Made by a program: the position numbers and the translations under genes. The notes beneath the pieces were generated by a model, which was given only the letters and a program-made list of their open reading frames with translations, was not told the DNA's origin and searched no databases. From Ignavibacteria bacterium CG2_30_36_16 (GTDB lineage: Bacteria > Bacteroidota > Ignavibacteria > Ignavibacteriales > Ignavibacteriaceae): a DNA stretch of 64,000 bases. The stretch spans positions 401 through 64,400 of the forward strand of contig MNYQ01000136.1 in NCBI GenBank assembly GCA_001873185.1, read 5' to 3'. This document shows, piece after piece, positions 2,668 through 44,022 of this stretch. How positions within the stretch are numbered: the first letter of the stretch is position 1; every line of letters begins with the position of its first letter.

Positions 2668-3588
2668 ATGCCTTTATCAAGCAGACACTTATTGGGTCTT
2701 CAGGGCGTTCCTAAAGAAGATATACAATTGATCCTCGATACTGCAACTACATTCCGCGAGGTGCTCGAACGTCCGGTAAAAAAGGTCCCGACACTACAGG
2801 GCAAAACCATCGTAAATTTATTTTATGAAAACTCCACGCGCACAAGAATATCATTTGAACTTGCGCAAAAAAGACTTTCTGCCGATACTGTTAATTTTTC
2901 TATATCTACAAGCAGTGTTAGCAAAGGTGAAACATTTAAAGATACTATCCGCAACATCGAAGCAATGAAAGTTGATATGGTTGTTGTGCGCCATGCAGCA
3001 GCCGGAACGCCTCTCTATCTAACAAAACTTTGCGATGCTAATATTATCAACGCGGGCGACGGAATACACGAACACCCAACGCAGGCATTACTTGATATCT
3101 ATTCAATTCACGAAAAACTCGGGCGTTTAGCGGGATTAAAGGTTTGCATCGTTGGCGATGTTGCGCACAGCCGGGTTGCGTTGTCAAATATTTTCGGATT
3201 AAAAACAATGGGCGCAGAAGTCTCGGTTTGCGGACCTTCTACAATGATCCCGCGCCAGATTGAAGAACTTGGAGTAAAAGTTTATTACAACATTGATGAG
3301 GCTATTCAGGCAAACGATGTACTTAACGTTCTCCGCATCCAACTCGAAAGAAAAGCCCGCGAATATTTTCCTTCGCTGCGTGAGTATTCGAACTACTTTG
3401 GAATTACCGAAGAACGTCTTGAAAAAAATGGTAAAGATATTTTGATACTTCATCCCGGTCCAATTAACCGGGGAGTTGAAATTTCATCCGGAGTGGCAGA
3501 CGGTAATAGACAAATAATTTTACAGCAAGTAACTAACGGTGTTGCAGTCCGTATGGCTGTGCTTTATTTACTCGGCACAATGAACTAA
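2668..3588 (+). CDS. pyrB: Aspartate carbamoyltransferase catalytic subunit
   Basis: 306 aa with the ATCase motifs NSTRTR, HEHPTQ and HPGPINRG. Confidence 0.93.
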   Translation: MPLSSRHLLGLQGVPKEDIQLILDTATTFREVLERPVKKVPTLQGKTIVNLFYENSTRTRISFELAQKRLSADTVNFSISTSSVSKGETFKDTIRNIEAMKVDMVVVRHAAAGTPLYLTKLCDANIINAGDGIHEHPTQALLDIYSIHEKLGRLAGLKVCIVGDVAHSRVALSNIFGLKTMGAEVSVCGPSTMIPRQIEELGVKVYYNIDEAIQANDVLNVLRIQLERKAREYFPSLREYSNYFGITEERLEKNGKDILILHPGPINRGVEISSGVADGNRQIILQQVTNGVAVRMAVLYLLGTMN

Positions 3589-6518: not shown

Positions 6519-9500
6519 TGGTAAAAAAACATTCAAAGAGATTTGAAGGCGATAGGAAATATTTTGCTATCGTCTTTTTTATTTTTTTTATTATTCTGCT
6601 TACAGGAATAATTACCCCCTATTTGTCGGATTTTAAACGCAGTAGTTGGAAGGACGAACTGACTGAAAAAATTTCTCAAATCCAATCTACAGTTACTCAA
6701 CTATTCAACGAAAGACAGTCTGAACTTATTACTGTTTCAAGCGCGCTTAAAAAACAACTTCACATAAATCTTAGCACAAAAAGCAAAACCTACGGCGACT
6801 TAATAGAGTTAATCAACAAGGAGACTTACAAAGATTATTCCTTACAGGTAGTTGCGCCAAACGGAAAAATAATTGCATGGAACGGAAAAATTGCAGTTCC
6901 TCAAAATGCAATATTTCCGCTGCAGCGTCCGGTTAGTGAAACTTTTTTTTATAGCAAAGAAATAATAACACACCTTACAGTAATTGATACCCTTTTAATT
7001 GAAAGCGATCAGTTTTATTTTATAGTTAGCCGCGAAATTGAAAAACATTATTCTCTTCAAAACGAGTACTATGTCGAAACTAATTTTAGCGACGAAATAT
7101 CCAACCGTTTCTTCACAAAGTTTTACATTGATTACAACCCCTTTACTTCAATAACAAAAGATGGAAGAAAATATTCCTTTGAACTTTTAAATAATGCGGG
7201 AAATAAAATTGGTCTTGTTACTCTAATAAAACCTGCGCTTGAAATTTCAATAAACAACTTCCACCAGCAGGTTACTAAAGTGCAGTCGGCGCTTGTTGTT
7301 TTAGCCGTTTTTTTCCTTGGACTCGGCTTTCGAAGAGAAAATAACCAATTAAAATTTAGATCATTAAAACTACTATTATTTGGCGCTTACCTCGCCTTAT
7401 TTAGATGGCTGATTTTTGTAGTGGAATTTCCATCCAATTTTATCGAAGGACCACTCACAGACCCTGCTTATTTTGCATCCGCATTCGGTATGGGAATAGT
7501 AAAATCTCCAGCCGAATTGTTCATTACCGTTTTGTTTGTTTTAATTTTTTCATTAAAAGTTTACACACATCTATTAAATTATATCGGTTTAAAACAAAAA
7601 TCCGGAACAAATAAACTGCTAAAAATTATATTTTCATCTGCAGCGGCACTGTTTTTTCTTTTAACTTTTAGAGGATTTGCAGCATCAGTTAAAAGTATAA
7701 TTTTCGACTCAACTCTGCGCTATTTCCGGGAACCGAATTTACTTCCGAATGAAATATCGTTAGTTATGAATTTGACTCTTCTGATGCTTGGAACTGCGAT
7801 CGTTCTTTTGCTCGGAAGTTATTTGCTGTCAATTTTATACAGTCTTTCATGGATAAACCGGCGTTACAAGATTTTAAGCTTTTGGCTCGCATTAATTTTA
7901 GCAGAATCGGCAGGAATAATTTACATCATTATACAAAAAGAACCGCTACTAACTCCTTTGATGAGCGTTCTTTTTATTGCCGCAATTTTTGTTTTTGCTT
8001 ACTGGGTTTATTTTGAAGACCGTAATTCGGTTTATAATTATGTTTATGCGGCGGTTATTGCTTCATTAATTTCAATTACCCTCCTCAACTTTTTTAATCT
8101 TGAACTCGAACGTGAGTCATTAAAAACAACTGCTTTTGAAATTAACCGCCCTAATGATAACCTTTTAAAATTTCTTGTTACGGAAACTATTAAGAGTGCA
8201 TCGAAAAATGATGAAGTTACTAATTCCTTTTCAGAAAGATTAACAAATTACGATGCAATTGCTTTTAAAATTTGGAGTCAAAGTCCGCTGCAGCACGAAG
8301 CAATGAATTCTACAGTTGTGCTTTTAGACAAAAATAAAAAACAACTCGGTAAATTTGAAATAGGAATGAATGCCGAATATATTCCTCAAGTTCCTGCAAA
8401 TTTCCGAAAGGATAGTGCAGTAACCTATGACACCGAATTCGAAAACGAAAGAAATAAAAAAATTTTCGGAAGCATAATTCCAATAATGGAAAGAAATATT
8501 CTAAAGGGTTTTATAGCAGCTTCTATCAGTTTCGATCTTGAAAGTTACGGCTCGGGCAATATGCCGGTTTTTCTCGAATCGCACAAAAATTATCTGAATT
8601 CAGTAATCGATCCTCGTGAAATAAAAATATTTGAATTCGAAGACACACAACTCGTTTCAGTTTACGGCGATATTTACCCTTCGCTTGATCAGGTAAAACC
8701 AATTCTTAATGCCAACTTTTCACCCGATCAGGAAACATGGTTAAACTTAAATTTAAATAATGAAATGTATGTCGCCTTCGTTATGCGCTATAATACTAAT
8801 GAGCATACGAAAACAACAGCGGTGCTTTTGCGCGAAAAACATTTTACATGGAATCTTTTTAACTTCTTTAAAATTTTCATAATTCACTCACTGTTTATTG
8901 TAATATTGTTCTTGATTTTGTTTCTGTCGAGGTTGAAATATTTCAAGTATTCATTCCGTGCACAGCTTTTAATTTCATTTTTAGTTATTTCAATTATTCC
9001 CGTTGTAATACTTGCAATTTACAATCGTCAAGTGGTTGATGAAAGAAGCCGGTTCGCTGTTTTTAACGAATTAGATGAAAGAATTAATTATATTGAAAAC
9101 CATATAAAGACACAATTAGCAAAACATGATGATAGAGATCTAACTACTGCTTTTTCGAATGCCGGCAGAGAATTAGGAATTTCGTACGGCGTTTATTCTT
9201 CTTCAAATTTAATTTTTAATTCCGATCAACAGTATTATGCAATCGGTTTGTTTCCCGATAAATTAGATCCTAAAGCTTATTACCAATTAAACTATTTAAG
9301 CTACCGCGAATTTCTGACTGAAGAAAAAGTGGAGAATTATTCATACAGCGCATTCTATAAGAAAATAAATATTAACGGAGAAGAATTTATTATTGGCGTT
9401 AATGAAGCTTTTAACAAGGTTAAAATTACTTTTTCCCTTATTGATGTAGATGTTTTCCTCTTCGGAATTTATTCGTTCGCAGTTATTATTATAATTATTA

Positions 9501-31709: not shown

Positions 31710-32321
31710 TTTTCAATTGTTAGTATTAAAAACGCGGGTAAAATTATCAAATTAGGATTATACAATCAATGTATTCTCGATTGATTTAAACAAAAAAGCC
31801 ACGCATATTCCGGCGGGGCTTTTGCGTAAAATAATTATCGAATTGTAGAGTAGGACAAGGGCGCAGTTCCCGCTTGCGGGACTGTTTCTCTTGAACCCCC
31901 GTCACCCGCCCCGTAACAAAAATATTTTTACCGCCAGCTTGATTAATAATTATGAGCGGTTTAACTTGCATTTGCAATTAATGCTAAAGGCTTGGAACTG
32001 GTGACTTTTGATATATTTATTCGGTGTGGTTTTAAGAATTAAATAATCATTTTTTTAATAATACAGAGGGTGTATTATAAACAGTAACTATTTTCTTTTT
32101 CCTAACGGCTTCAGTGTTGTACTTCTTTCAGTTCCGCGCAGCGCGGAAAATACTCCTCTCGAAGGTTCCCGCAATTTAATACTCAATTTTAAAATCTATC
32201 TTTTAGCAATTGTTTTTATTAGCAGGGCAGATGATATTGAACAATTAAATAACCCGGACAAACAGAAAAACAACAACAAATTACTTTTAAGAAAAGAAAT
32301 TTCGCACCCGCGCTTTGCCGA

Positions 32322-32545
32322 CATGCACCCATACAAAGGCTCCATACATTCATTCAAAGCCTTCATACACCCATACAAAGATTCCATACATTCATTCAAA
32401 ACCTCCATGCAGTCATGCAAAGGTTACGTGCATTCAATCAAAGCCATCTTGCGGTCGTTCAAAGCCATCTTGCAGTCATTCAAAGCCATCTTACGTGTGA
32501 GCGAAATCATCTTGCGGGCGTTCAAAGCCATCTTGCAACGGCGCA
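32322..32545. repeat. Tandem array of about 10.5 degenerate 21-bp units
   Basis: Units start at 32322, 32343, 32364 ... 32532. The best-conserved form is CTTGCRGTCRTTCAAAGCCAT, seen in units 7, 8 and 10. Confidence 0.85.
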
Positions 32546-32690
32546 ATTACTTGCTGTGTAACAACAGAAACGATAAAAAGATACAAAAATACGCAAATTA
32601 CGAGGTTTTATACACCCAAATTCTGAATACCCCAACTTGCCCGGGGGAAAGGGCAAAATCAACAAATAAATTTCCCGAAAGGAGAATGAT

Positions 32691-33368
32691 ATGCGCGGAA
32701 AACTCGAAAATTATTTTTCGATGCTCAGAAGCGTAGACGGTCTGCTCAAACTGAATACTGTTATTGTTGATGCTGTTGCAGCTTTCAAAAGAGCGGCGTT
32801 AGAACTGAGTAATTTGCTTACCGAAGTAAGCGAATTAGAAACAACAAGACCTTCGACCACCACGGGTAAAACCGAAAAAAAGCGAAACGCCAAATACGCG
32901 CTTTGCGAGGCAGGCGCAAATGTATGCGCAGCTATCAGGGTTTACGCCGAAGAGACTGAGAAGAAAGATTTGCTTGCGGAAGCGATGTATACCGAAAGCG
33001 ACTTTAAGAGAATGCGGGACACCGAGCTGCCCGATAAAGTTGGCGCGGTAAAAAATCTGGCTGAGGCAAACAAAACCGATTTAGCGGATTATGGTGTTGA
33101 CCAGGCGGAGATAGACAACCTTGCTACCCTTATTACAGCATATAACAGCGCGATGGCGGAGAAGGATGATATTGTAGCCGGCAGCATTTACTCTACACAG
33201 GCGCTTGAAGGGCTTGAGGAAAGAGGACGTAAAATAATAAACCGGCTCGATCTGCTTGTAGAACGTTTGCAGACAACACAGTCGGAATTTTGCGGCAAAT
33301 ACCTTACAGCACGCCGTATAATTGACGTTGGTGTAAGGCACGAAAAACCCGAACCGACGAATCCGTGA
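32691..33368 (+). CDS. Hypothetical protein (225 aa), visibly more GC-rich than the downstream cassettes
   Basis: Long ORF with AGGAG 7 nt upstream of the ATG. I recognised no motif. Confidence 0.6.
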   Translation: MRGKLENYFSMLRSVDGLLKLNTVIVDAVAAFKRAALELSNLLTEVSELETTRPSTTTGKTEKKRNAKYALCEAGANVCAAIRVYAEETEKKDLLAEAMYTESDFKRMRDTELPDKVGAVKNLAEANKTDLADYGVDQAEIDNLATLITAYNSAMAEKDDIVAGSIYSTQALEGLEERGRKIINRLDLLVERLQTTQSEFCGKYLTARRIIDVGVRHEKPEPTNP

Positions 33369-33402: not shown

Positions 33403-33440
33403 CATTATACATTATACATTATACATTGTACATTGTTCAT
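33403..33440. repeat. 7-bp microsatellite (CATTATA-type, about 5 units)
   Basis: cattatacattatacattatacattgtacattgttcat. Confidence 0.8.
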
Positions 33441-33491
33441 CGTGCATTCTTTCTGATTGTTTACTGCTGGTAAGTTATTTGAAGAGATAAG

Positions 33492-33509
33492 ATCCGTTTG
33501 TTAACGGAT
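33492..33509. repeat. PAL-1 palindrome copy (variant)
   Basis: atccgtttgttaacggat. Confidence 0.55.
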
Positions 33510-33556
33510 TAAAAATTTTTGTGAAGGTTTTTGATTTGGAGTTTTTTATTGGTAAG

Positions 33557-33697
33557 CTTTGCTTTTTGCGGATGTAAAAAGTAGAAGGAAATTTTTTCCC
33601 GCTAGAAGCGGGATGTATTCCAAAAATAAAATTAATTGCGGTGTTGTGTTTTAACAACTTGTCCCGATATTATCGGGATAACACGTCGTTATGCGTT
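33557..33697 (+). repeat. attC-like composite repeat, copy A1 (5' limit uncertain)
   Basis: Contains hairpins H2-H5 of the family. It ends gtcccgatattatcgggaTAACacgtcGTTATGCGTT. Confidence 0.75.
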
Positions 33698-33704
33698 CAA
33701 AAAA

Positions 33705-36377
33705 ATGATAAAAAGTATAACAGAATTATCTCCATATGAACTTGGAGAGACCAATAAAATTGAGGCAATACCATTTATTATTGAATATTTGGAAAATGGT
33801 AGTTCCAACGAAAGGAGATTGGCTGCCTCGGCTATCAATAAGCTTAAAATTATTTATCACGAGGAATGTAAATCTGCTATTCCTTATCTAATAAATATTC
33901 TGGATGAATCATACCCTCAACAAACTCAATACGCCTTAAAAGCGCTTCTTGGTTTTGATTTACCCAAATATGCGTTACCTATTTTTAAGAAAATTTCAAT
34001 TGAAGGCAAGAAACCTTATAATAAGGAGCTTGCTTTGCAAATTCTAAATACGAAAAACTTTAAAGGCGAAATTCATAATTCTATGGCAAAAAATACTTTT
34101 ATTGATAATAATATTACTGAAGAGCAAAAGGAAGTTATTCATCACCCATTTGGTAAACACGCCAAAGTTTTAGCGGTTGCTGGTTCTGGGAAAACAACCA
34201 CAATGGCTAATAGAATAATCCACTTGATTAAGAATAGATCAGTTCCAAAAGATTCAATTCAAGTTTTAATGTTTAATAAACTTGCTAAAGATCAATTTGT
34301 TAAAAAACTTTTGCAACTTGGCTTATCATTAGAGAACTCACCATCTGTAAATACGTTCCATTCTTTTTGTTATCGAATAATATCATCTGCAATGTCTAAA
34401 GGTCATCTTCCTAAATATGACAATTGGAATGGAGACAAAGAAGAATTGGTGTGGTTCTATCTTGAACTAGTTATTTCAGAACTTGAAAAAAAGAAACTAA
34501 TTCCTCCAAACAGTGTTGATAGAGATGAATGCAAAAACGCAATAAGTTTATGGAAAGGATCTCTTATTCCACCTAGTAGGGCTGGTTATAAAGGTAATGA
34601 AAATTATGCAATTGTATATAAATATTTTGAAGATAAGCGAAACTACAAAAAAGCCATTACATTTGATGATTTTGTTCCATTAACGATTGAATCAATAACC
34701 GGTTCTAATTCTGCATATTTCAAAGATAATATTTCGTTTTTAATCGTGGACGAGTACCAAGATGTTAATTATGGGCAGCAAAAGTTAATTGAACTAATAA
34801 CAAATAAATCTACAGACATTATGGTCGTTGGAGACGATGACCAAACGATATACGAGTGGAGGGGGGCAAGACCAGAATATATAATTAATGATTTCGATAT
34901 AGTTTTTAATAATAAATCCGTAACAGAATATAAACTTTCACATTCTTTTCGTTTTGGTCCTTTAATCGCACAATCCGCTCAGAATTGTATAAGCCACAAT
35001 ACCAAACGAACAGAAAAGAATCTTCTTTCAAAGTCGATAAATCAATCAATTATTTCTATTCTCAGTGAATCATCAGAACAAAGCACTGATGTTGAAAAAC
35101 AAATGGTAGAGCAGATTATTGTATTGGTTAAAAGCGGACATTCCCTACCAAATGATGTTGTTGTATTAGTTCGTCTGTATCACCAATTGTTCGGTATGGA
35201 GAAGGAATTACTAGCTAGAAAAGTGCCTTATCGAGTGGTAGGTCAAAGTCCATTTTTCGAGAGAAAAGAAATTAAATCCTTAATAAATTATATAACACTA
35301 AGTAAATCACTAGATGTAGCTGTTAATGAGGATAACAAAAACACTCTTTTCTCAATTATTAATTATCCATCGAGGAAAATCACCAGAAGTGAAATTGAGC
35401 GATATGTCAATAAAGCTATATCAAGTGGCGCGACATATAGAGAACTAATCTCAAAGCTTTACGAGGACGAGGTCTCGATATTCATTTCTCTTCAAAAAGA
35501 CAGATTATTAGAATTTCATTATTTACTAGAAAAATTGGAAGAAAAAATTATTGATAAAAATAATTTAGCTGGTAATATTCTAAAGTGGTTAGTGGAGAAA
35601 ATTGAATTAAAAAAATATTTTATTGATTACTATGGCGATGGTGAGTCCTCAAATGATCGTATAAAGGTTGTTGATAAATTTATTGAATATGCTACAAGTA
35701 CAAACAAACCTTTGTCCCATTTTATAGAGCATTTGTCAAAGCTTGATACTACAAGAGGTAAAAGACCTGAAGAGCAAATATTATTAACATCAATTTTCAG
35801 AACAAAAGGTTTGGAATATGACTATGTCTTTATCCCAGAATGTATCGAAGGAAATATGCCTTGCCTAAAGGGTAATGAAATTAATATTTATGACAAAACT
35901 AGCCAAGTAAAGGAGCCGAAACCCTCAGAGGTTATACAAAATGAAAGACGTTTATTTTATGTCGCTATAACAAGGGCTCGAAAAGCCTGTTTTGTTGGAA
36001 CTTCATCGATTCCAAAGGAGGGTCTTCAACAGTCCTCAAATCCGGCAAAACATTCAAGATTCATTGAAGAGATTGAATTTGATAAGCTATCAAAAATATA
36101 TAATTACCTTAATCTTTCAGAAATATCAGATGAGGATTTTAATAAGCTAATAAATGACGTCAACACAAATTCATTAAACAAAAATACTCTTAATAATTTT
36201 CTGTACTATTTAACGGATAAACTTGATACAAACAAACTAGGTCAATTAAGTAAAATAATATTAAAATTATCACCCAAACCATTTTGTTATGCAACGAGTT
36301 ATAATTCTGATTTAGAATCAAGTAAAATTAAGAAACCAGAAAAATGGAGAAGTATTTGGGACGAAATAGAATTATAA
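33705..36377 (+). CDS. UvrD/Rep-family helicase with an N-terminal HEAT-repeat domain (cassette 1)
   Basis: Helicase motifs are AVAGSGKTTT, VDEYQDVN, VGDDDQTIYEWRGA, FRTKGLEYD and FYVAITRARK. The N-terminal ~140 aa are HEAT-like. The start is taken at ATG 33705 because the track's 33636 start lies inside repeat A1. Confidence 0.85.
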   Translation: MIKSITELSPYELGETNKIEAIPFIIEYLENGSSNERRLAASAINKLKIIYHEECKSAIPYLINILDESYPQQTQYALKALLGFDLPKYALPIFKKISIEGKKPYNKELALQILNTKNFKGEIHNSMAKNTFIDNNITEEQKEVIHHPFGKHAKVLAVAGSGKTTTMANRIIHLIKNRSVPKDSIQVLMFNKLAKDQFVKKLLQLGLSLENSPSVNTFHSFCYRIISSAMSKGHLPKYDNWNGDKEELVWFYLELVISELEKKKLIPPNSVDRDECKNAISLWKGSLIPPSRAGYKGNENYAIVYKYFEDKRNYKKAITFDDFVPLTIESITGSNSAYFKDNISFLIVDEYQDVNYGQQKLIELITNKSTDIMVVGDDDQTIYEWRGARPEYIINDFDIVFNNKSVTEYKLSHSFRFGPLIAQSAQNCISHNTKRTEKNLLSKSINQSIISILSESSEQSTDVEKQMVEQIIVLVKSGHSLPNDVVVLVRLYHQLFGMEKELLARKVPYRVVGQSPFFERKEIKSLINYITLSKSLDVAVNEDNKNTLFSIINYPSRKITRSEIERYVNKAISSGATYRELISKLYEDEVSIFISLQKDRLLEFHYLLEKLEEKIIDKNNLAGNILKWLVEKIELKKYFIDYYGDGESSNDRIKVVDKFIEYATSTNKPLSHFIEHLSKLDTTRGKRPEEQILLTSIFRTKGLEYDYVFIPECIEGNMPCLKGNEINIYDKTSQVKEPKPSEVIQNERRLFYVAITRARKACFVGTSSIPKEGLQQSSNPAKHSRFIEEIEFDKLSKIYNYLNLSEISDEDFNKLINDVNTNSLNKNTLNNFLYYLTDKLDTNKLGQLSKIILKLSPKPFCYATSYNSDLESSKIKKPEKWRSIWDEIEL

Positions 36378-36572
36378 ACGCATAACAAGTTATTCCGTTT
36401 AAAGTCAACTTAAAATTTAGATGTTCGTTAAATTTTGTTAAGTGCTTTCGGGGCGTAGTTATCCCGAAAAAACAAAAACAACCCTTGCTTTTTGCGTATG
36501 TAAAAAGTAGAAGGAAATCATTAAAATAAAATTAAATACGGTGTTGTGTTTTAACAACTTGTCCCGTTCGTT
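36377..36572 (+). repeat. attC-like composite repeat, copy A2 (H3 deleted, 3' end truncated)
   Basis: Begins with AACGCATAAC, the exact reverse complement of 33688-33697. It shares the 5' module with A5, lacks the TCCCGC..GCGGGA hairpin, and ends gtcccGTTCGTT. Confidence 0.75.
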
Positions 36573-36824
36573 AGCCAACGGATTGCCAGTGGAGTTTGTA
36601 TATACAGAATTAGCGCAATGAAGGAAGGGAAAACACTTTTTAATGAATCCAAGCAGATGGTATTAGTCAAATAATAAAAATGAGGCGTCTTTTTAAAAAT
36701 AAATTTTAATAAAAATATAGTATGCAAACCGCCTTGCATACTATAAGAAATTTTGGCAGCATAATTAATACTTAACCATTTTGGTTAAAATCTAATAATA
36801 ATATTTTTCTAAGGAGGAAAATTT

Positions 36825-39140
36825 GTGAAAAGAGCAGCTTTACTTATCGCCTTTGTAATTCTTGGCAATATTACAATTGCACAGTGGGTACAAACCAATG
36901 GACCGTACGGCGGCGAAATTCAATGCTTTGCCGTCTCGGGCTCGAATCTCTTTGCCGGAACTTATGGCGGCGGCGTCTTTCTTTCCACTAACAACGGCAC
37001 AAGCTGGACGGAGGTCAATTCTGGTTTGACTAATACTGATGTAAGTGCCCTTGCCGTCTCGAGCTTGAATCTCCTTGCCGGAACTCGTGGCGGCGGCGTC
37101 TTTCTATCGACCAACAACGGCACAAGCTGGACAGCAGTCAATTCTGGTTTGACCAATAATTCTGTACATGCCCTTGCCGTCTCGGGCACGAATCTCTTTG
37201 CCGGGACCGGTGGTGGCGTCTTTCTTTCCACGGACAACGGCACAAGCTGGACTGCGGTCAATTCTGGTTTGACCAGTACTAGAGTATATGCCCTTGCCGT
37301 CTCGGGCTTGAATCTCTTTGCCGGAACTTGGAACAGCGGCGTCTTTCTATCCACCAACAACGGCACAAGCTGGACGGAGGTCAATTCCGGTTTGACCAGT
37401 ACCTATGTGTATGCCCTTGCCGTCTCGGGATCGAATCTCTTTGCCGGAACTTATTACGGCGGCGTCTTTCTTTCCACTAACAACGGCACAAGCTGGACGG
37501 AGGTCAATTCTGGTTTGACTAATACTTCTGTACGTGCCCTTGCCGTCTCCGGCACGAATCTCTTTGCCGGAACTCTTGGCGGTGTCTTTCTTTCCACCAA
37601 CAACGGCACAAGCTGGACGGAGGTCAATTCTGGTTTGACTAATACTCATGTACTTGCCTTTGCCGTCTCGGGCGTGAATCTCTTTGCCGGAACTTGGGGC
37701 GGCGTCTTTCTTTCCACCAACAACGGCACAAGCTGGACGGAGGTCAATTCTGGTTTGACCAATTCTTATGTATTTGCCTTTGCAGTCTCGGGCTCGAATC
37801 TCTTTGCCGGAATTTATGGCGGCGTCTTTCTTTCCACTAACAACGGCACAAGCTGGACGGCGGTCAATTCTGGTTTGACTAATACTTCTGTACGTGCCCT
37901 TGCCGTCTCCGGCTCGAATCTCTTTGCCGGAACTGATTACGGCGGCGTCTTTCTTTCCACTAACAACGGCACAAGCTGGACGGAGGTCAATTCTGGTTTG
38001 ACTAATACTTTTGTACTTGCCCTTGCCGTCTCGGGCTCGAATCTCTTTGCCGGAACTGGCGGCGGCGGCGTCTTTCTTTCCACCAACAACGGCACAAGCT
38101 GGACGGAAGTCAATTCTGGTTTGACCAATACTTCTGTACTTGACTTTGCCGTCTCGGGCTCGAATCTCTTTGCCGGAACTTTTAACGGCGTCTTTCTTTC
38201 CACCAACAACGGCACAAACTGGACGGCGGTCAATTTTGGTTTGACCAATACTTATGTAAGAGTCTTTGCTGTCTCAAGCTCGAATCTCTTCGCCGGAACT
38301 GAGGGCGGGGTCTTTCTTTCCACCAACAACGGCACAAGCTGGACGGCGGTCAATTCTGGTTTGACTAATACTCATGTACTTGCCTTTGCCGTCTCTGGCG
38401 CGAATCTCTTTGCCGGAACTTATAGCGGCGTCTTTCTTTCCACCGACAACGGCACAAGCTGGACGGCGGTCAATTCTGGTTTGACCTATACTTATGTCAA
38501 TGCCCTTGCCGTCTCGGGCGTGAATCTCTTTGCCGGGACTTGGGGCGGCGGTGTTTGGAGAAGGCCCTTGGATGAGATACCAGTAGAGCTCACATCATTC
38601 GCAGCATCAGTACAGGAAAATAAAGTTGTTCTTAACTGGGCAACGGCAACAGAAACAAATAATCAGGGATTTGAGATTGAAAGAAAACTATTCGGCAGTA
38701 ATTATGAAAAAATTGGATCTGTAACTGGTTTCGGAACGACAACCGAACCAAAATCATATTCATTTAAAGATGAAAATGTTACTAGTGAAAAATATTCATA
38801 TAGATTAAAACAGATTGACTTTGACGGAACATTTGAATACTCAAATGTGATAGAAGTAGAAGTTGACTTTACTCCCAAAGAATATACACTCTATCAAAAC
38901 TACCCCAACCCATTCAACCCAAGCACAACAATCAGCTTCTCAATTCCTGAGGGGAGTTTTGTAACGCTTAAAATTTATGATATGCTTGGAAGAGAAGTAG
39001 CGATTCTTATCTCCGAAGAATTATCTGCCGGAACCTACTCACAGCAATGGAATGCAGTAGGGTTAGCAGGCGGAATTTACTTCTATAGTTTGCAAGCAGG
39101 TTCTTTCGTTGAGACCATGAAACTCGTTTTGCTTAAGTAA
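36825..39140 (+). CDS. Secreted beta-propeller-type repeat protein (BNR/Ycf48-like repeats) with a T9SS C-terminal sorting domain
   Basis: GTG start with AGGAGG upstream, followed by a signal peptide. It carries about 13-14 repeats of roughly 40 aa (GGVFLSTNNGTSWTEVNSGLTNTxVxALAVSGSNLFAGT). The C-terminus is NYPNPFNPSTTISF...GIYFYSLQAG. Confidence 0.88.
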   Translation: MKRAALLIAFVILGNITIAQWVQTNGPYGGEIQCFAVSGSNLFAGTYGGGVFLSTNNGTSWTEVNSGLTNTDVSALAVSSLNLLAGTRGGGVFLSTNNGTSWTAVNSGLTNNSVHALAVSGTNLFAGTGGGVFLSTDNGTSWTAVNSGLTSTRVYALAVSGLNLFAGTWNSGVFLSTNNGTSWTEVNSGLTSTYVYALAVSGSNLFAGTYYGGVFLSTNNGTSWTEVNSGLTNTSVRALAVSGTNLFAGTLGGVFLSTNNGTSWTEVNSGLTNTHVLAFAVSGVNLFAGTWGGVFLSTNNGTSWTEVNSGLTNSYVFAFAVSGSNLFAGIYGGVFLSTNNGTSWTAVNSGLTNTSVRALAVSGSNLFAGTDYGGVFLSTNNGTSWTEVNSGLTNTFVLALAVSGSNLFAGTGGGGVFLSTNNGTSWTEVNSGLTNTSVLDFAVSGSNLFAGTFNGVFLSTNNGTNWTAVNFGLTNTYVRVFAVSSSNLFAGTEGGVFLSTNNGTSWTAVNSGLTNTHVLAFAVSGANLFAGTYSGVFLSTDNGTSWTAVNSGLTYTYVNALAVSGVNLFAGTWGGGVWRRPLDEIPVELTSFAASVQENKVVLNWATATETNNQGFEIERKLFGSNYEKIGSVTGFGTTTEPKSYSFKDENVTSEKYSYRLKQIDFDGTFEYSNVIEVEVDFTPKEYTLYQNYPNPFNPSTTISFSIPEGSFVTLKIYDMLGREVAILISEELSAGTYSQQWNAVGLAGGIYFYSLQAGSFVETMKLVLLK
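36900..38560 (+). repeat. In-frame tandem DNA repeats (period about 120-123 nt) inside the beta-propeller gene
   Basis: gtcaattctggtttgac recurs at 37016, 37138, 37258, 37623, 37743, 37863, 37986, 38109, 38349 and 38469. One-mismatch variants (gtcaattccggtttgac, gtcaattttggtttgac) fill the series at 37379 and 38229. The flanking sequence is near-identical between units. Confidence 0.9.
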
Positions 39141-39258
39141 AACGAAAGCGGAAATCTTTTCCCGCTAGAAGCGGGATTGGCGCCCAAAATAATTAATATG
39201 GCAATGTTGTGTTTTAACAACTTGTCCCGCTTTGCGGGCTAACACGCCGTTATATAGC
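39141..39258 (+). repeat. attC-like composite repeat, copy A3 (short form, H3-H5 only)
   Basis: aacgaaagcggaaatcttttCCCGCtagaaGCGGG...gtcccgctttgcgggcTAACacgccGTTATATAGC. Confidence 0.75.
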
Positions 39259-39269
39259 TTAGGAAAACT

Positions 39270-39971
39270 ATGACAATTGATAATTCAGAAATAATTCTGA
39301 AATGGTATATTGATTTAGAAGAAAGATTCGTAAGTTTGACTAAATCAATTCCAATAAATCCCAAAAACATAAAAGTAGAATTACCACTATTAGCTAGCAT
39401 TATTGTGGAAGGTGGAAGTTTAATTGACACCATTTTTAGAGAAGAATGTAATAATGGTAAAAGAAAAGATAGAAACAATATTGGCGCTTATTGTAAATAT
39501 TTTGAGCCTCAGATTCATTTAATGAATGCATTATCTGTCCCGCTTGTATTTCCACCACAATATTTAAACCCATTTAAAGGTTGGTATGTTAAGTCAAGGA
39601 ACGATTATAAGGCAAGAAAATGGTGGCAGAATTATAATTTTATTAAACATAGCCGTATAGAGAATTCGCATTTTTCAACAATGGAAACAGCTTTTTTAAC
39701 ATTATGTGGTTTACACCAAGTAATGACAAAGATTGACATATTTATTGATAGTTTGTTACGAAATGGATTTGTTTCTTATGGCGGATTAAATCTTGATTAC
39801 TTATTGAACAAGATAAGAAACAAAGAATATTATGGAAGGATATTAATTGAAACAAAATTATTCGCAACTCCATTTGGTATCCACAACTTTCCTAAGGATA
39901 TAAATCATATTCGTCCAATTGATTGGGGAAGTAGTAGAAAATTTTCTGAGTTTTTAGGTAGAGAAAGTTAA
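39270..39971 (+). CDS. Hypothetical protein (cassette 3), possible HEPN-type nuclease
   Basis: 233 aa. The segment WWQNYNFIKHSRIENSH contains an R-x4-H motif of HEPN type. This rests on motif-level evidence only. Confidence 0.6.
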   Translation: MTIDNSEIILKWYIDLEERFVSLTKSIPINPKNIKVELPLLASIIVEGGSLIDTIFREECNNGKRKDRNNIGAYCKYFEPQIHLMNALSVPLVFPPQYLNPFKGWYVKSRNDYKARKWWQNYNFIKHSRIENSHFSTMETAFLTLCGLHQVMTKIDIFIDSLLRNGFVSYGGLNLDYLLNKIRNKEYYGRILIETKLFATPFGIHNFPKDINHIRPIDWGSSRKFSEFLGRES

Positions 39972-39974
39972 AAC

Positions 39975-40318
39975 GCTATATACCGTTACAAGGTTTCACG
40001 CCAAGCGCAGCCGGGCATAATCCAGTGTTCCCCGTAAAGAAACGGGGTCTATGGATGGACTAAGCCGAAAAGCGGCTTAACCCGGACACTTGCATTTTCA
40101 GTAGTACATTTTATAAGTGTGTTAACTCTTGCGGGACGCAGCTATCCCGAAAGAAGAATATAACCCTTCCTTTTTGCGTATGTAAAAAGTAGAAGGAAAT
40201 CTTTTCCCGCTAGAAGCGGGATTGGCGCTCAAAATAATTAATACAGCAGTGTTGTGTTTTAACAACTTGTCCCGCCCGTTAGCCAACGGACTGACGGGAT
40301 AAAAAGGCGTTATACTGA
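39975..40318 (+). repeat. attC-like composite repeat, copy A4 (unique 5' multi-hairpin module plus H1-H5)
   Basis: Begins with GCTATATAcC, which matches the reverse complement of 39249-39258 at 9 of 10 positions. It ends gtcccgCCCGTTAGCCAACGGactgacgggaTAAAaaggcGTTATACTGA. Confidence 0.75.
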
Positions 40319-40399
40319 TAGAGAAATAATTACATCAATACTTGAATTTCTTTTTTGGCTTTTCTATTATTAAGCCTATAAAATAAAGAAGGTGTGAAA

Positions 40400-40600
40400 A
40401 TGGATTCAAAAAATATTATTCAAAGCGCATTAAATCTAAGCCCTGCGGAGAGACTTTTTATAATTGATGCTATTTCTAAAAGTTTAAGTGAGCCTGATAA
40501 AGATATTGATGAATATTGGAAAGACGAAGTTGAAAAACGATATGATGCTTTTATAAAAGGGAAAGTAAAAAGAATTCCTTACGAGGAAATTAGAAAATAA
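40400..40600 (+). CDS. Antitoxin, putative addiction-module component (TIGR02574-like)
   Basis: The sequence SALNLSPAERLFIIDAISKSL...YWKDEVEKRYDAFIKGKV matches the family pattern. The stop overlaps the toxin start. ATG 40400 is preferred to GTG 40394. Confidence 0.8.
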   Translation: MDSKNIIQSALNLSPAERLFIIDAISKSLSEPDKDIDEYWKDEVEKRYDAFIKGKVKRIPYEEIRK

Positions 40601-40887
40601 TGTTAGTTGAATTTCTTGAACCTGCACATATAGAATATCAAGAAGCTATCGAATTTTATAATCTGCAAAGTGAAGGATTGGGCGATAAATTTATTATTGA
40701 AGTAGATAGGACTATATCAATAATAAAAAAATATCCAGAGAGTTTTTGCGAATATACTAGCCATACAAGAAAAGCTGTTGTGAGTATTTTCCCTTATAAT
40801 ATTATTTATGCTCTTCACAAAAATTACATTGAAGTAATTGCAATTGCACACCAACATAGAAAACCGAATTTTTGGTTAAATAGATAA
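40600..40887 (+). CDS. Type II toxin, RelE/ParE family
   Basis: 95 aa. The ParE-like pattern is LEPAHIEYQEAIEFY at the N-terminus and AIAHQHRKP at the C-terminus. Confidence 0.8.
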   Translation: MLVEFLEPAHIEYQEAIEFYNLQSEGLGDKFIIEVDRTISIIKKYPESFCEYTSHTRKAVVSIFPYNIIYALHKNYIEVIAIAHQHRKPNFWLNR

Positions 40888-40896
40888 TAGCAAAAG

Positions 40897-41154
40897 CAGT
40901 ATAATCAGTTACTCCGATTAAAGCCAACTTAAAATTTAGATGTTCGTTAAACTTTTTTAAGTGCTTTCGGGGCGCAGCTATCCCGAAAGAACAAAAACAA
41001 CCCTTGCTTTTTGCGTATGTAAAAAGTAGAAGGAAATCTTTTCCCGCCGGAAGCGGGATTGGTGCCCAAAATAATTAATACGGCAGTGTTGTGTTTTAAC
41101 AACTTGTCCCGTCCGTTAGCCAACGGACTGACGGTTAACGCGCCGTTAGCAATT
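40897..41154 (+). repeat. attC-like composite repeat, copy A5 (full-length reference copy)
   Basis: CAGTATAA (40897-40904) is the reverse complement of 40310-40317. Hairpins are H1 40964-40989, H2 41002-41033, H3 41042-41058, H4 41088-41103 and H5 41106-41134. The unit ends TTAAC gcgcc GTTAGCA. Confidence 0.8.
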
Positions 41155-41245
41155 CAAAGGTTTAAGCCAATTTAAAGATTTATTTGGAAGGTTTCTAAAG
41201 AAATTCTCCACTTGATTAAAGTAAGCCAATGGATTATATTCGCAT

Positions 41246-41581
41246 ATGCTAATTACAATTGTTGAATTACCTGAATATATAAAGAGCGCAGAAAAAGAAC
41301 TATCAAAAGATGAAAGAGATGAATTGATTTATTATTTGTCTTCTAATCCTAAAGCTGGAACTTTAATGCAAGGAACTGGAGGTGTAAGAAAGTTAAGGTG
41401 GGCTTCAAAAGGTAAAGGTAAAAGCGGTGGTTCCAGAGTTATATACTTTTACTATAATGAAACTATTCCCCTATTCTTATTAACAATATTCGGGAAAAAT
41501 GAAAAGATTAATTTAAGCAAAGCTGAACGGAATGAATTAGCAAAATTTGTAAAAGAATTAGTAAAAAGTTATAAAAGGTAA
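41246..41581 (+). CDS. Type II toxin, RelE/HigB-like (cassette 5)
   Basis: 111 aa. The motif GGVRKLRWASKGKGKSGGSRVIYFY is typical of HigB-2-type toxins that sit upstream of an HTH antitoxin. Confidence 0.78.
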   Translation: MLITIVELPEYIKSAEKELSKDERDELIYYLSSNPKAGTLMQGTGGVRKLRWASKGKGKSGGSRVIYFYYNETIPLFLLTIFGKNEKINLSKAERNELAKFVKELVKSYKR

Positions 41582-41584
41582 AAA

Positions 41585-41872
41585 ATGAGTGAAGCATATA
41601 AAAGTATAAGTAAAGGATTGAAAGAAGCAATTGAATATTCTAAAGGAAATAATAAGGGAGTCAGAGAATTTAGGGCGAAACATATTGATGTGAAAAAGTT
41701 GAGAGAAAGAATTGGAATGAGTCAGCCAAAATTTGCAGCGTCATTTGGGATTAGTTTGGGAACATTAAGACATTGGGAAAGAAGAGATAGGTATCCACAA
41801 GGTCCGGCTTTAGTTTTATTAAATTTATTATCAAAAGACCCAAACACAGTATTAGAAGTTTTACATAAGTAA
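41585..41872 (+). CDS. HTH (XRE-type) antitoxin, HigA-like
   Basis: 95 aa. The HTH segment is LRERIGMSQPKFAASFGISLGTLRHWE. It lies 3 nt downstream of the toxin gene. Confidence 0.8.
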   Translation: MSEAYKSISKGLKEAIEYSKGNNKGVREFRAKHIDVKKLRERIGMSQPKFAASFGISLGTLRHWERRDRYPQGPALVLLNLLSKDPNTVLEVLHK

Positions 41873-41895
41873 GTTGCGCAACCTAACCAGTGCTT

Positions 41896-42132
41896 GCTAA
41901 TGAACCACTATCGCTAATGCCGGAATGCTAAAGTGTGGTTGCAGAATAAGAGGCGTTTTAAGAATAAACGGCATCAATAGGATTTTTTTTAAATATAAAT
42001 CGGAAAAATGAACATAGCTATTTGGCGACCATTGAAAGCTTAAAAAAAATTACAGAATAGGCTCAAATTATTTTTATAAAACAGCGTCTGTTTATGTCGC
42101 TGCAATTTGGTTAAGCAAATAACCAAAATATC
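41896..42132 (+). repeat. Non-coding repeat B, copy B1
   Basis: About 237 nt that align with 43022-43260 along the whole length, with roughly nine in ten positions identical by eye. No ORF is present. Confidence 0.85.
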
Positions 42133-42169
42133 TAGATTTTAGAGGATAATAATTTTGTCACTTTGGGTG

Positions 42170-42294
42170 TTGAGATTTTTTCCCGCTAAAAGCGGGATTG
42201 GTGCCCAAAATAATTAATACGGCAGTGTTGGATTTTAATAACATGTCCCATCCGTTAGCTAACGGACCATCGGGATAACACGCCGTTAGGTGCT
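42170..42294 (+). repeat. attC-like composite repeat, copy A6 (H3-H5 part)
   Basis: tttttTCCCGCtaaaaGCGGGAttggtgcccaaaataattaatacggcag...gtcccaTCCGTTAGCTAACGGAccatcgggaTAACacgccGTTAGGTGCT. Confidence 0.75.
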
Positions 42295-42365
42295 TAATTA
42301 GTTTATTTTATTTCAAAAATAGAGTAAATTAGAGAAAGCAATATTAGAAGACAGGATAATAAGAA

Positions 42366-42608
42366 ATGGAAAATGAAGGATTTTATAATAAGTTCGAATC
42401 ACTTCCAATAGAAGCACAGAAACAAGTATTGACGTTTATAGATTTCTTACAAAAAAGATATGAATCTAAAAGCAAAAAGCTTCGCGAATGGAAACCTATA
42501 AAAGATAAGAAATTTGTTGGGATATGGGAAAACCGGGAAGATGTAAATGATAGCTCTTTATGGATAAGGAATTTACGAAAGAAAGAGTGGAGAGAAATTG
42601 GCGAATAA
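42366..42608 (+). CDS. Antitoxin (DUF2281-like) paired with a PIN toxin
   Basis: 80 aa. The segment LPIEAQKQVLTFIDFLQKRY is typical of DUF2281. It overlaps the PIN gene by 11 nt. Confidence 0.72.
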   Translation: MENEGFYNKFESLPIEAQKQVLTFIDFLQKRYESKSKKLREWKPIKDKKFVGIWENREDVNDSSLWIRNLRKKEWREIGE

Positions 42609-42990
42609 TTTTTCAATAATTGATTCTGATATACTGATTGATATTGGAAGAAAGGATACAACAGCAATAAAAAGGCTGGAAGAAGAACGAAAAACTTCCA
42701 TGCCAGCAATTAGCTCGGTTACTCAAATGGAATTACTTATTGGTTGTAGAAATAAAACTGAATTAAAACATTTAGATAAATTCCTAGAAGATTTTGAAAT
42801 CATTAGCTTTAACTACGAGATAACACAAAAAGCAATTGAACTTCTTAAAGAATATAAACTTAGCCACGGATTATTAATAGCAGATAGTATTATAGCAGCT
42901 ACTTCACTGGTTTTAGATGTACCTCTTTTAACAAAGAATCAAAAAGATTATAAGTTTATTAGTGGCTTAAAATTATTAAAATATCCTTAA
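42598..42990 (+). CDS. vapC: PIN-domain toxin (VapC-like)
   Basis: 130 aa. Acidic residues sit in the PIN pattern (IIDSDILID, QMELL, LIADSIIAAT). Confidence 0.8.
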   Translation: MANNFSIIDSDILIDIGRKDTTAIKRLEEERKTSMPAISSVTQMELLIGCRNKTELKHLDKFLEDFEIISFNYEITQKAIELLKEYKLSHGLLIADSIIAATSLVLDVPLLTKNQKDYKFISGLKLLKYP

Positions 42991-43021
42991 TCAGCAAGAG
43001 CGCACACACTACCATGCTGCT

Positions 43022-43260
43022 GCTAATGAACCACTATCGCTAATGCCGGAATGCTAAAGTGTGGTTGCAGAATAAGAGGCGTTTTAAGAATAAACGGCAT
43101 CAATTGGATTTTATTTTTTAATATAAAACAGAAAAATGAACATAGCTATTTGGCTACCATTGAAGACTTAAAAAAAATTACAGAATAGGCTCAAATTGTT
43201 TTTATAAAATAGCGTCTGTTTATGTCGCTTCAATTTGGTTTAGTGAATAACCATAATACC
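43022..43260 (+). repeat. Non-coding repeat B, copy B2
   Basis: Paralogue of 41896-42132, again placed immediately after a toxin-antitoxin module. Confidence 0.85.
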
Positions 43261-43370
43261 GGGTTTGCTTTTCTACGTATTTTACTCTTTGTTCTTTGAC
43301 TTTCTGTTGTTACTGGGCGATACCTTCGTCTACGTAATCAATACCTTCGGTCATTATAGTATTGATATGC

Positions 43371-43388
43371 ATCCATTAGCTAACGGAT
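43371..43388. repeat. PAL-1 palindrome copy
   Basis: atccattagctaacggat. Confidence 0.6.
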
Positions 43389-43709
43389 TCATAATTCAAA
43401 ATTGCGGCTTGCCGCGCAGTGGAGCTAAGAAGAAAATGACAATAGCGGTATTATATAAACCAGTATTCAGTTCCGTAAGAACGAACTGTTATTAGAAATA
43501 GATACGCCCCACACAAATAAGCTCCGTAGAAGCGACTTGTAAAGGATGCAATTGTAAATTTTCATGTGTTTAAAGAAGCAATAGTCGGTTCCTATGGAGC
43601 TAAAATAATTGTTCCCTCTAAAATGCTAACAAAAGACCGCTCCTACGGAGCTAAAATAATTCTTTGTTATTCATGTTACAAACAGAAAACTCCGATAGTA
43701 TTGGAAAGT

Positions 43710-43727: not shown

Positions 43728-43770
43728 TTTTTATGTCAAGATATTTATCTCGCAAGCGGGATTGCGTTTC

Positions 43771-43812
43771 ATTCAAAATTCATAATTCATAATTCATAAT
43801 TCATAATTCAAT
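43771..43812. repeat. 7-bp microsatellite (ATTCATA x4 plus degenerate flanking units)
   Basis: attcaaaattcataattcataattcataattcataattcaat. Confidence 0.85.
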
Positions 43813-44022
43813 ATGGCGGCTCGCCGCGCTATGTTATAGTAAGTAACTGCTAATTTTCCCTGCAAGCTGGATGTTCCGTTTATTTGATTCGTTTTTTTTG
43901 ACTCCAATTAAATTTATTTATACATGCCCAAATTTAATAAAAGTCCCTTTCCAACTTAAGCATTATACTTTTTCCTTTCTCCCCTCTGCTTTATATTAGC
44001 TTCATAAAAATTCAAACATACT

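Follow-up and report, generated by a model that had tools for sequence, protein, structure and literature searches.

A probable integron-type gene-cassette array without an adjoining integrase, and its long attC sites, in an Ignavibacteriaceae chromosome

Introduction

The repeats of Vibrio cholerae known as VCRs are the attC sites of a sedentary chromosomal integron, and one of them, VCR2, is 133 bp long. In integrons, the attC strand is folded when the integrase acts on it, and recombination takes place inside the R-box triplet AAC/GTT; published attC sites measure 57–141 bp, usually with a spacer of 5–6 nt on each arm (PMC5027507) and with a variable region of 20–100 nt (PMC4889954). A cluster of attC sites lacking an integron integrase is termed a CALIN (Cury et al., 2016, PMC4889954), and complete integrons have been reported in the Ignavibacteriae (Neron et al., 2022, PMC9024848). 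Here we describe a region of Ignavibacteria bacterium CG2_30_36_16, found in a 64-kb window, that is, the whole stretch of 64,000 nucleotides analysed (contig MNYQ01000136.1, positions 401 to 64,400). The region 33549–43400 of this window is very probably an integron-type gene-cassette array of an Ignavibacteriaceae chromosome and, since no integrase was found in the window, it is classed as a CALIN.

Like sedentary chromosomal integrons, the array has R''/R' arms with conserved AAC/GTT triplets and a crossover after which the distal R' bases open the following cassette. It also shares with them a spacer that behaves as unpaired and a branched variable region, and L arms carrying extra bases on a single arm are clear in attC4 and in the related sites of L014 and L056. 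As in those integrons, the attC sites of one lineage are highly similar, and the short open reading frames (ORFs) are co-oriented and rich in toxin-antitoxin pairs. The differences are quantitative as well as structural: the attC sites measure 184–408 nt instead of 57–141 bp, the R stem has 10–11 bp against a 7-bp consensus, the 5'-arm spacer has 0–2 nt against 5–6 nt, a 3' module of about 70 nt is conserved across several metagenome-assembled genomes (MAGs), and the array stands without an adjacent intI, attI or cassette promoter (Pc). Like described CALINs, it has at least two attC sites with cassettes, no integrase nearby, housekeeping flanks and signs of decay; unlike them, it belongs to a set of many small arrays on different contigs of the same MAG.

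Complementarity between cassette starts and ends

The array consists of six co-oriented gene units (a helicase, a BNR protein with a type IX secretion system (T9SS) sorting domain, an orphan 233-aa ORF and three toxin-antitoxin pairs); apart from the BNR unit, their ORFs begin 17–101 nt after the crossover. Its units and sites are as follows.

33549–33688, + strand: 'attC0', a 5'-truncated site of repeat family D2 (nhmmer, 84.7 bits) with part of the variable region and the conserved 3' module
33689–36590, + strand: cassette 1, start TTATGCGTT after G 33688
33705–36377, + strand: ORF of cassette 1, an 890-aa UvrD/GajB-like helicase
36377 to about 36590, + strand: attC1, 3'-truncated, R'' AACGCATAAC at 36377–36386, L'' GTTATTCCG at 36389–36397
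36591–39140, + strand: BNR/Sortilin-repeat protein with a T9SS C-terminal sorting domain (Pfam), ORF 36825–39140
39141–39249, + strand: 5'-truncated attC, 3' module only (76.5 bits), ending CGGGCTAAC-ACGCC-G at crossover G 39249
39250–40309, + strand: cassette 3, start (G)TTATATAGC; its ORF 39270–39971 (233 aa) has no family match in Pfam
39975–40309, + strand: attC3, 335 nt, R'' GCTATATACC at 39975–39984, L'' GTTAC at 39985–39989
40310–41145, + strand: cassette 4, start (G)TTATACTGA
40394–40600 and 40600–40887, + strand: toxin-antitoxin pair of cassette 4, with family matches to Unstab_antitox/TIGR02574 and, weakly, to ParE
40896–41145, + strand: attC4, 250 nt, R'' GCAGTATAAT at 40896–40905, L'' GTTACTCCG at 40908–40916
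41146–42285, + strand: cassette 5, start (G)TTAGCAATT
41246–41581 and 41585–41872, + strand: toxin-antitoxin pair of cassette 5, RelE-family and helix-turn-helix (HTH) antitoxin
41878–42285, + strand: attC5, 408 nt, to G 42285, R'' by homology GCAACCTAAC at 41878–41887
42286–43400, + strand: cassette 6, start (G)TTAGGTGCT
42366–42608 and 42598–42990, + strand: toxin-antitoxin pair of cassette 6, VapB/DUF2281 and VapC PIN
about 43003–43400, + strand: decayed terminal attC, whose L'/R' end is lost after CCATTAGCTAACGG at 43373–43386

The initial annotation had proposed that the first bases of a cassette, counted from the crossover G, are complementary to the R'' box of that cassette's own attC, and the eight 10-mers that it gave for cassettes 1, 3, 4 and 5 were all recovered exactly in place. 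In cassette 1, the start GTTATGCGTT (33688–33697) and the box AACGCATAAC, which overlaps the TAA stop codon by 1 nt, are reverse complements at 10/10 positions. The complement reaches 9/10 in cassette 3 and 8/10 in cassette 4, as eight contiguous Watson-Crick pairs plus one G-T, while the pair proposed for cassette 5 matches at 7/10 and the best match in cassette 6 at 6/10. By scoring random GTTA+N6 starts against the 43 nt 3' of each stop codon, P values of 0.00025, 0.0009 and 0.017 were obtained for cassettes 1, 3 and 4, whose complements are therefore significant and far above chance; the values for cassettes 5 and 6 were 0.26 and 0.44, respectively. In the 5x5 matrix of cognate and non-cognate pairings, the cognate sum was reached by 2/120 permutations, one of which is the cognate pairing itself.

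To extend the comparison beyond the window, public genomes and metagenomes were scanned using the core of the 3' module as retrieval probe, which yielded 64 loci (L001–L064). Genomes contributed 21 of them, 20 from Ignavibacteriaceae/Ignavibacteria MAGs and one with no label beyond 'Bacteroidetes bacterium'; many are on separate contigs of one MAG. At independent loci, the 10 bases from the G of GTTA recur reverse-complemented, mostly just 3' of the cassette's last stop codon, with 10/10 matches in L005, L009, L015, L020, L022, L056 and L064 and 9/10 matches in about 12 further loci. Across 40 distinct cassettes from Ignavibacteriaceae MAGs and metagenomes, the cognate sum was reached in 0/100,000 start-end permutations, and perfect 10/10 matches were found in 8/40 cognate pairs against 8/1560 non-cognate pairs. 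Non-cognate pairs thus match worse in the permutation check that the initial annotation had suggested, and its statement that these sequences are cassette-specific holds, with the start/end rule also valid in the independent loci. Pairing covers positions 1–10; among 24 cassettes chosen by those positions, position 11 is paired in 14 and pairing beyond it is at background. Chance matches in AT-rich intergenic DNA could account for cassettes 5 and 6, which are at chance level, but this explanation is refuted by the P values of cassettes 1, 3 and 4 together with the permutations over 40 independent cassettes, and its probability is practically nil.

Where both neighbours of an attC are known, 51/54 specific positions of its R'' are complementary to the start of its own cassette, against 17/54 for the start lying next in situ. 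The cassettes are therefore circularly permuted, as had been read from the window, and the arms do not represent a hairpin split by an insertion. Own-start complementarity fits the prediction of a crossover at or next to G|TT and of a circular intermediate, with the data placing the crossover only within or just 5' of GTTA. The same numbers bear on a model in which a mobile 'body', comparable to a miniature inverted-repeat transposable element (MITE) or a repetitive extragenic palindromic (REP) element, was inserted into the loop of pre-existing terminator hairpins 3' of genes, so that split arms flank the repeat. The bodies are indeed conserved, multi-hairpin and dispersed over many contigs, and some modules have taken up a REP-like palindrome, CCGTTAGCYAACGG, copies of which are scattered through the genome. 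Such a model, however, predicts in-situ R'' pairing and is contradicted by a value at background; it also leaves the crossover-adjacent GTT/AAC triplets, the L arms and the extra bases unexplained, and we regard it as extremely improbable.

Two details of the initial annotation had to be revised. The match claimed for cassette 5 is spurious, as indicated by its P value and by its position at 41892–41901, inside the conserved CTAATGAACC region and off the homologous R'' position. In five independent sites of the attC5 subfamily (L007, L017, L022, L044 and L057), R'' lies 9–10 nt 5' of a conserved CTAATGAAYC box and matches its own cassette start at 9–10/10 in L017, L022, L044 and L057 and at 8/10 in L007. 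The R'' assigned to attC5 by this homology, GCAACCTAAC, shows no complement to the start of cassette 5 (5/10). The other detail concerns the GTTAY motif described 1–2 nt after the downstream match in cassettes 1, 3 and 4: the motif is present, but the real gaps are 2, 0 and 2 nt (AA-GTTAT, GTTAC and CA-GTTAC). For cassette 6, we agree that there is no convincing match. A (T)AAC or TAAT/TACC sequence was found at the R'' of cassettes 1, 3 and 4 and of 24 cassettes elsewhere, and GTTA at 5/5 intact 3' ends.

Each unit comprises TTA plus about 6–7 cassette-specific bases, one or more ORFs, and an attC. In the attC, R'' (specific bases plus TAAC) is followed by a gap of 0–2 nt, L'', a long variable region of multiple hairpins, L' (CGGGATAAC), a spacer of 5 unpaired nt and a final G. 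As for the mechanism, an integron integrase would cut one strand of the folded attC within the conserved AAC/GTT triplet, so that everything 3' of G|TT in R' would leave with the downstream cassette. In the circular cassette these distal R' bases would adjoin the cassette's own attC and pair with its R'', and re-insertion would split the R stem across the ORF. The start/end complement would arise because the cut inside the triplet sends the distal R' bases away with the downstream cassette. We infer IntI as the enzyme, a cut exactly at G|TT and use of the bottom strand.

Anatomy of the attC sites

The repeats that separate the units share a 3' module of about 70 nt, AAAATAATTAATACGGCAGTGTTGTGTTTTAAYAACTTGTCCCG-loop-CGGGATAAC-ACGCC-GTTA, and carry longer 5' extensions sorted into subfamilies. 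At the 3' end the order is L' (ATAAC), a 5-nt spacer and R' (GTTA...), and at the 5' end R'' (...TAAC), 0–2 nt and L'' (GTTAY...). The 5 nt between ATAAC and GTTA form the most variable stretch of the module (ACGCC, ACGTC, GCGCC, ATGCC, ACACC and AAGGC, among others) and vary without compensating changes; judged from these variants, they behave as an unpaired central spacer, as expected of an attC. Classical L arms were found in the attC sites of L014 and L056, which lack the module, for example TTCAAGCCGaCCGC / GCGGCGGCTTAAA in L014. In both, an extra A and C on the 5' arm correspond to T and G extrahelical bases on the bottom strand.

DNA folds, which are predictions, were computed for the bottom strand together with the cassette's own start. 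The R''/R' stem closes the whole of attC3 and attC4 in both minimum free energy (MFE) and centroid folds, with stability z values of −4.2 and −3.4, respectively, and no shuffled sequence was equally stable. In mini-constructs, the L arms are predicted to pair for attC4 and the 5' half of attC1, less well for attC3 and not for attC5; the attC4 arms pair imperfectly (GTTA-CT-CCG / CGG-T-TAAC). The folding check suggested along with the initial annotation was thus passed by the R stems of attC3 and attC4 and, in the mini-construct, by the R and L arms of attC4. An intra-module stem proposed by the MFE folds, ACGGCAGTGTT / AACACGCCGT, was rejected as a conserved structure, as its 3'-arm variants are uncompensated; this segment instead acts like the unpaired spacer. 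In a deletion variant of the module that was met repeatedly, GTGTTGTGTTTTAAC is fused to ATAACACGCC-GTTA, and the CCCG...CGGG hairpin is therefore dispensable. The variant was located at the following positions.

L001 4090–4140, − strand: module deletion variant
L005 about 2880–2907 (reverse-strand coordinates): module deletion variant
L006 about 5130: module deletion variant

Sites for which both ends were assigned, the 3' end by the conserved ...ACGCC|GTTA box, measure 184, 184, 186, 193, 223, 250, 321, 335, 345 and 408 nt, and the R stem has 10–11 bp. Automatic assignment of 3' ends by duplex energy was noisy and convincing only for L014 and L056. Three attC sites of the window are complete (attC3 to attC5) and four are truncated, those at 33549–33688 and 39141–39249 lacking the 5' half and those at 36377 to about 36590 and about 43003–43400 lacking the 3' end. 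The module of attC0 reads ...GTGTTGTGTTTTAACAACTTGTCCCG-loop-CGGGATAAC-ACGTC-G, its last base being the crossover G 33688; no R''/L'' was recognised in the sequence upstream of it, and a terminator-like hairpin at 33491–33510, found by a terminator scan, precedes it. In attC1, the L'/R' end is lost after the palindrome TCGTTAGCCAACGG, and the module scores 53.8 bits over model positions 3–62 only. The 3' end of attC4 is composed of L' CGGTTAAC, the spacer GCGCC and G 41145. In the decayed terminal site, 43021–43258 is 91–98% identical to attC5 41895–42130 (repeat families D5 and D7). No Rfam match was found in the whole window. A sigma-70 promoter scan of the array, which may not suit this phylum, gave 47 sites against 39.4 +/- 7.5 expected, none of them consistently in the module, and thus offers no support for the module as a promoter.

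Integrase relics in related loci

A tyrosine recombinase was found neither among the ORFs flanking or within the array (Pfam) nor in the 64-kb window (tblastn with IntI1). The IntI1 sequence served as a probe only, validated by a match with E = 1e-80 on L066. The initial annotation is corrected on this point, as there is no integron integrase in the window, and a complete integron, with intI, attI and Pc beside the array, was not found there. Relatives, by contrast, carry remains of such genes. A 30-aa relic of an IntI N-terminus is present at L051 661–750, and protein searches seeded from it returned only fragments and pseudogenes (contexts L065–L071). L065 10001–10315 encodes an IntI N-terminus at a contig end, with module-like sequence before it, and L066, from an Ignavibacteriales MAG, carries a frameshifted but otherwise full-length intI that scores 302 bits against the TIGR02249 cutoff of 265.

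The attC family of the window is physically linked to such relics. In L067 (Ignavibacteriaceae), an internally deleted intI with TIGR02249 as its best family lies within an array (8927–9455), and this array carries the R''-L'' subfamily of attC3, CTAAC-GTTACAAGGATTCATGCC. A similar relic lies inside a toxin-antitoxin-rich array in L068–L071 (L068 6767–7241). In L067 and L068–L071 the relics are reduced to a SAM-like N-terminal part and the final ~80 residues; IntI relics share the orientation of the cassettes and sit inside the arrays. In L067, a stretch of ~157 nt spanning the intI start recurs at 3141, 8803, 15886 and 18011. The described Chlorobi/Ignavibacteriae integrons (PMC9024848) come from the same phylum-level lineage, in which a TIGR02249-type intI is present (L066) or decayed (L067, L068), although those complete integrons were found with the standard attC model.

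These relics also weigh on the alternative of a small transposon or Xer/dif-type module with 10-bp terminal inverted repeats, moved by a recombinase other than IntI. In its favour, inverted termini of 10–11 bp flank each ORF unit and no intact integrase was found nearby, and the pdif modules of Acinetobacter plasmids, which are Xer-dependent, likewise consist of genes between recombinase core sites in inverse orientation. Beyond GTTA/TAAC, however, the termini differ for each cassette, while a transposase or Xer would have to bind a conserved sequence; the sequence shows no target-site duplications flanking the units, and Pfam no transposase or Xer gene in the array. The pentamers are spaced by 5 nt at one end and 0–2 nt at the other (ATAAC-N5-GTTAT and TAAC-N0-2-GTTAY). 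Unlike pdif modules, with their 28-bp 11-6-11 XerC/XerD sites and 11-nt arms, the units described here have unequal end spacers, module-specific termini and a link to integron-integrase relics instead of Xer. This alternative appears very unlikely.

Weighing the integron interpretation

The integron-cassette interpretation of the initial annotation is supported, apart from the pair of cassette 5 and with attC sites far longer than the classical ones. Several observations nevertheless weigh against it. Cassettes 5 and 6 lack the start/end signature; the L arms of attC3 are unpaired in the MFE fold, and the R stem of attC5 does not form. The 5'-arm spacer has 0–2 nt and that of the 3' arm 5 nt, and the lengths of 184–408 nt fall outside 57–141 bp, with implied variable regions well above 20–100 nt. 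The tblastn search with IntI1 revealed no integrase in the 64 module-bearing loci other than the 30-aa relic of L051, and relatives hold only intI relics, no intact intI having been seen beside this attC family. The conservation of the module is partly circular because the loci were fetched with the module as probe. Finally, a cassette shared by L006 and L058 is followed 3' of R'' by different attC bodies, an outcome not predicted by the canonical reaction. As for length, the published range is drawn from known sites and does not define an attC mechanistically.

The cassette shared by L006 and L058 is the main support for an alternative with integron-like cassettes in which both R arms are exchange points (G|TTA at the cassette start, TAA|C at its end), by which ORF modules and attC bodies would reassort and module-only sites would act as scattered attI-like landing pads. 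The shared cassette encodes 303 aa, with 91% nucleotide identity between L006 6144–7020 and L058 10708–11584 (− strand), and the homology runs from G|TTATACCG to exactly after the R'' ...GGTATAAC, while the bodies downstream belong to different subfamilies. In addition, several arrays open with a 5'-truncated, module-only site (window 33549–33688, L009, L020 and L007), the L'-spacer-R' segment (ATAAC-N5-GTTAT) resembles a double-stranded simple site, and the short 5' spacer reduces the asymmetry of the strands compared with classical attCs. However, this is one discordant pair only, whereas L022 and L044 co-inherit ORF and attC body and L019 and L028 keep the same kind of 5' end; the truncated first sites could be mere decay, and top-strand recombination is reported to be rare and to invert cassettes (PMC5027507), while all ORFs here are co-oriented. 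Such an exchange is, on balance, quite improbable. A wider proposal combines it with a lineage-specific Ignavibacteriaceae attC architecture (184–408 nt, R stem of 10–11 bp, near-absent 5' spacer and 3' module of ~70 nt), probably missed by standard finders, in many small integrase-less arrays in which ORF modules and attC bodies reassort and module-only sites serve as dispersed attI-like landing pads; we consider this proposal rather unlikely. The integron-type CALIN thus remains the preferred interpretation.

Gene content, turnover and neighbouring repeats

Cassette 1 is unusually large (2.7 kb), and its helicase is of UvrD type with an N-terminal extension of ~130 aa. It matches the PADLOC models of GajB and of the helicase associated with defence-associated reverse transcriptases (DRT), with E = 1e-50 to 1e-56, and has no partner gene; on these matches, it may be a defence cassette. 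The BNR gene has its own AT-rich leader of 230 nt, and neither a recognisable cassette start nor an R'' was found in the sequence of its unit, which is therefore without bona fide cassette boundaries. It contains 13 tandem repeats of 120/123 nt (window 36849–38603), the copy number of which differs among metagenome contigs, with products of 461–811 aa. The array is flanked by housekeeping genes, nuo, DUF58 and TPR on the left and radical SAM and DUF6873 on the right, those nearest to it encoding DUF58, the TPR protein and the radical SAM enzyme.

In the related MAG of L006, a BNR gene 94% identical to that of the window is followed by a different cassette, and in L001 the left flank is retained next to other cassettes, the first again with complementary start and R''. 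The locus is thus conserved among relatives, but its cassettes turn over. In the species itself, two cassette proteins of the window recur as exact copies in >70 index blocks of the collection. Helicase, BNR protein, 233-aa ORF, toxin-antitoxin pairs and radical SAM follow one another in this order in all 23–24 contigs read, wherever they extend; only the number of BNR repeats varies among them, and they show no sign of ongoing shuffling. The truncated end sites and the identical order point to an array that is currently inactive, or frozen.

The 14-nt palindrome (t)CCGTTAGCYAACGG(a) occurs in 11 places of the window, against 0 expected.

Window 30111, 30171, 36568, 40276, 41113, 42252, 43373, 43712, 45791, 46463 and 50550: palindrome (t)CCGTTAGCYAACGG(a)

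Several copies lie between housekeeping genes outside the array, some followed by T runs and terminator-like, while others are inserted in the module hairpin loop of attC3, attC4 and attC5; the truncated attCs stop right after a copy (36568 and 43373). By sequence and distribution, it looks like a REP-like dispersed element. Short tandem repeats also flank the array, as 21-nt units repeated 7–8 times within ORF 32323–32736 (32317–32484), CATTATA-type heptamers after ORF 32691–33368 (33404–33440) and TTCATAA heptamers near the right end (43770–43810). Two pairs of direct repeats of 31–35 nt (43387–43417 / 43799–43829 and 43579–43613 / 43630–43664) lie within the 600 nt that separate the decayed last attC from the radical SAM gene.

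Concluding remarks

The principle behind the start/end signature has long been known; the instance is new, namely an Ignavibacteriaceae CALIN with quantitatively unusual attC sites. The signature marks cassette boundaries cleanly and with strong statistical support in a phylum whose integrons have been little studied. By default, IntegronFinder limits attC sites to 200 nt. Its model was built on attC sites with variable regions of 20–100 nt (PMC4889954), and most of the sites described here would probably be missed by it. The attC sites are two- to threefold longer than the classical range, with an atypical spacer; model-based tools therefore probably underestimate the number of arrays in Ignavibacteriaceae, and perhaps in other members of Bacteroidota-Chlorobiota. 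The covariation of start and R'' over dozens of cassettes offers a tool-independent way to find such cassettes.

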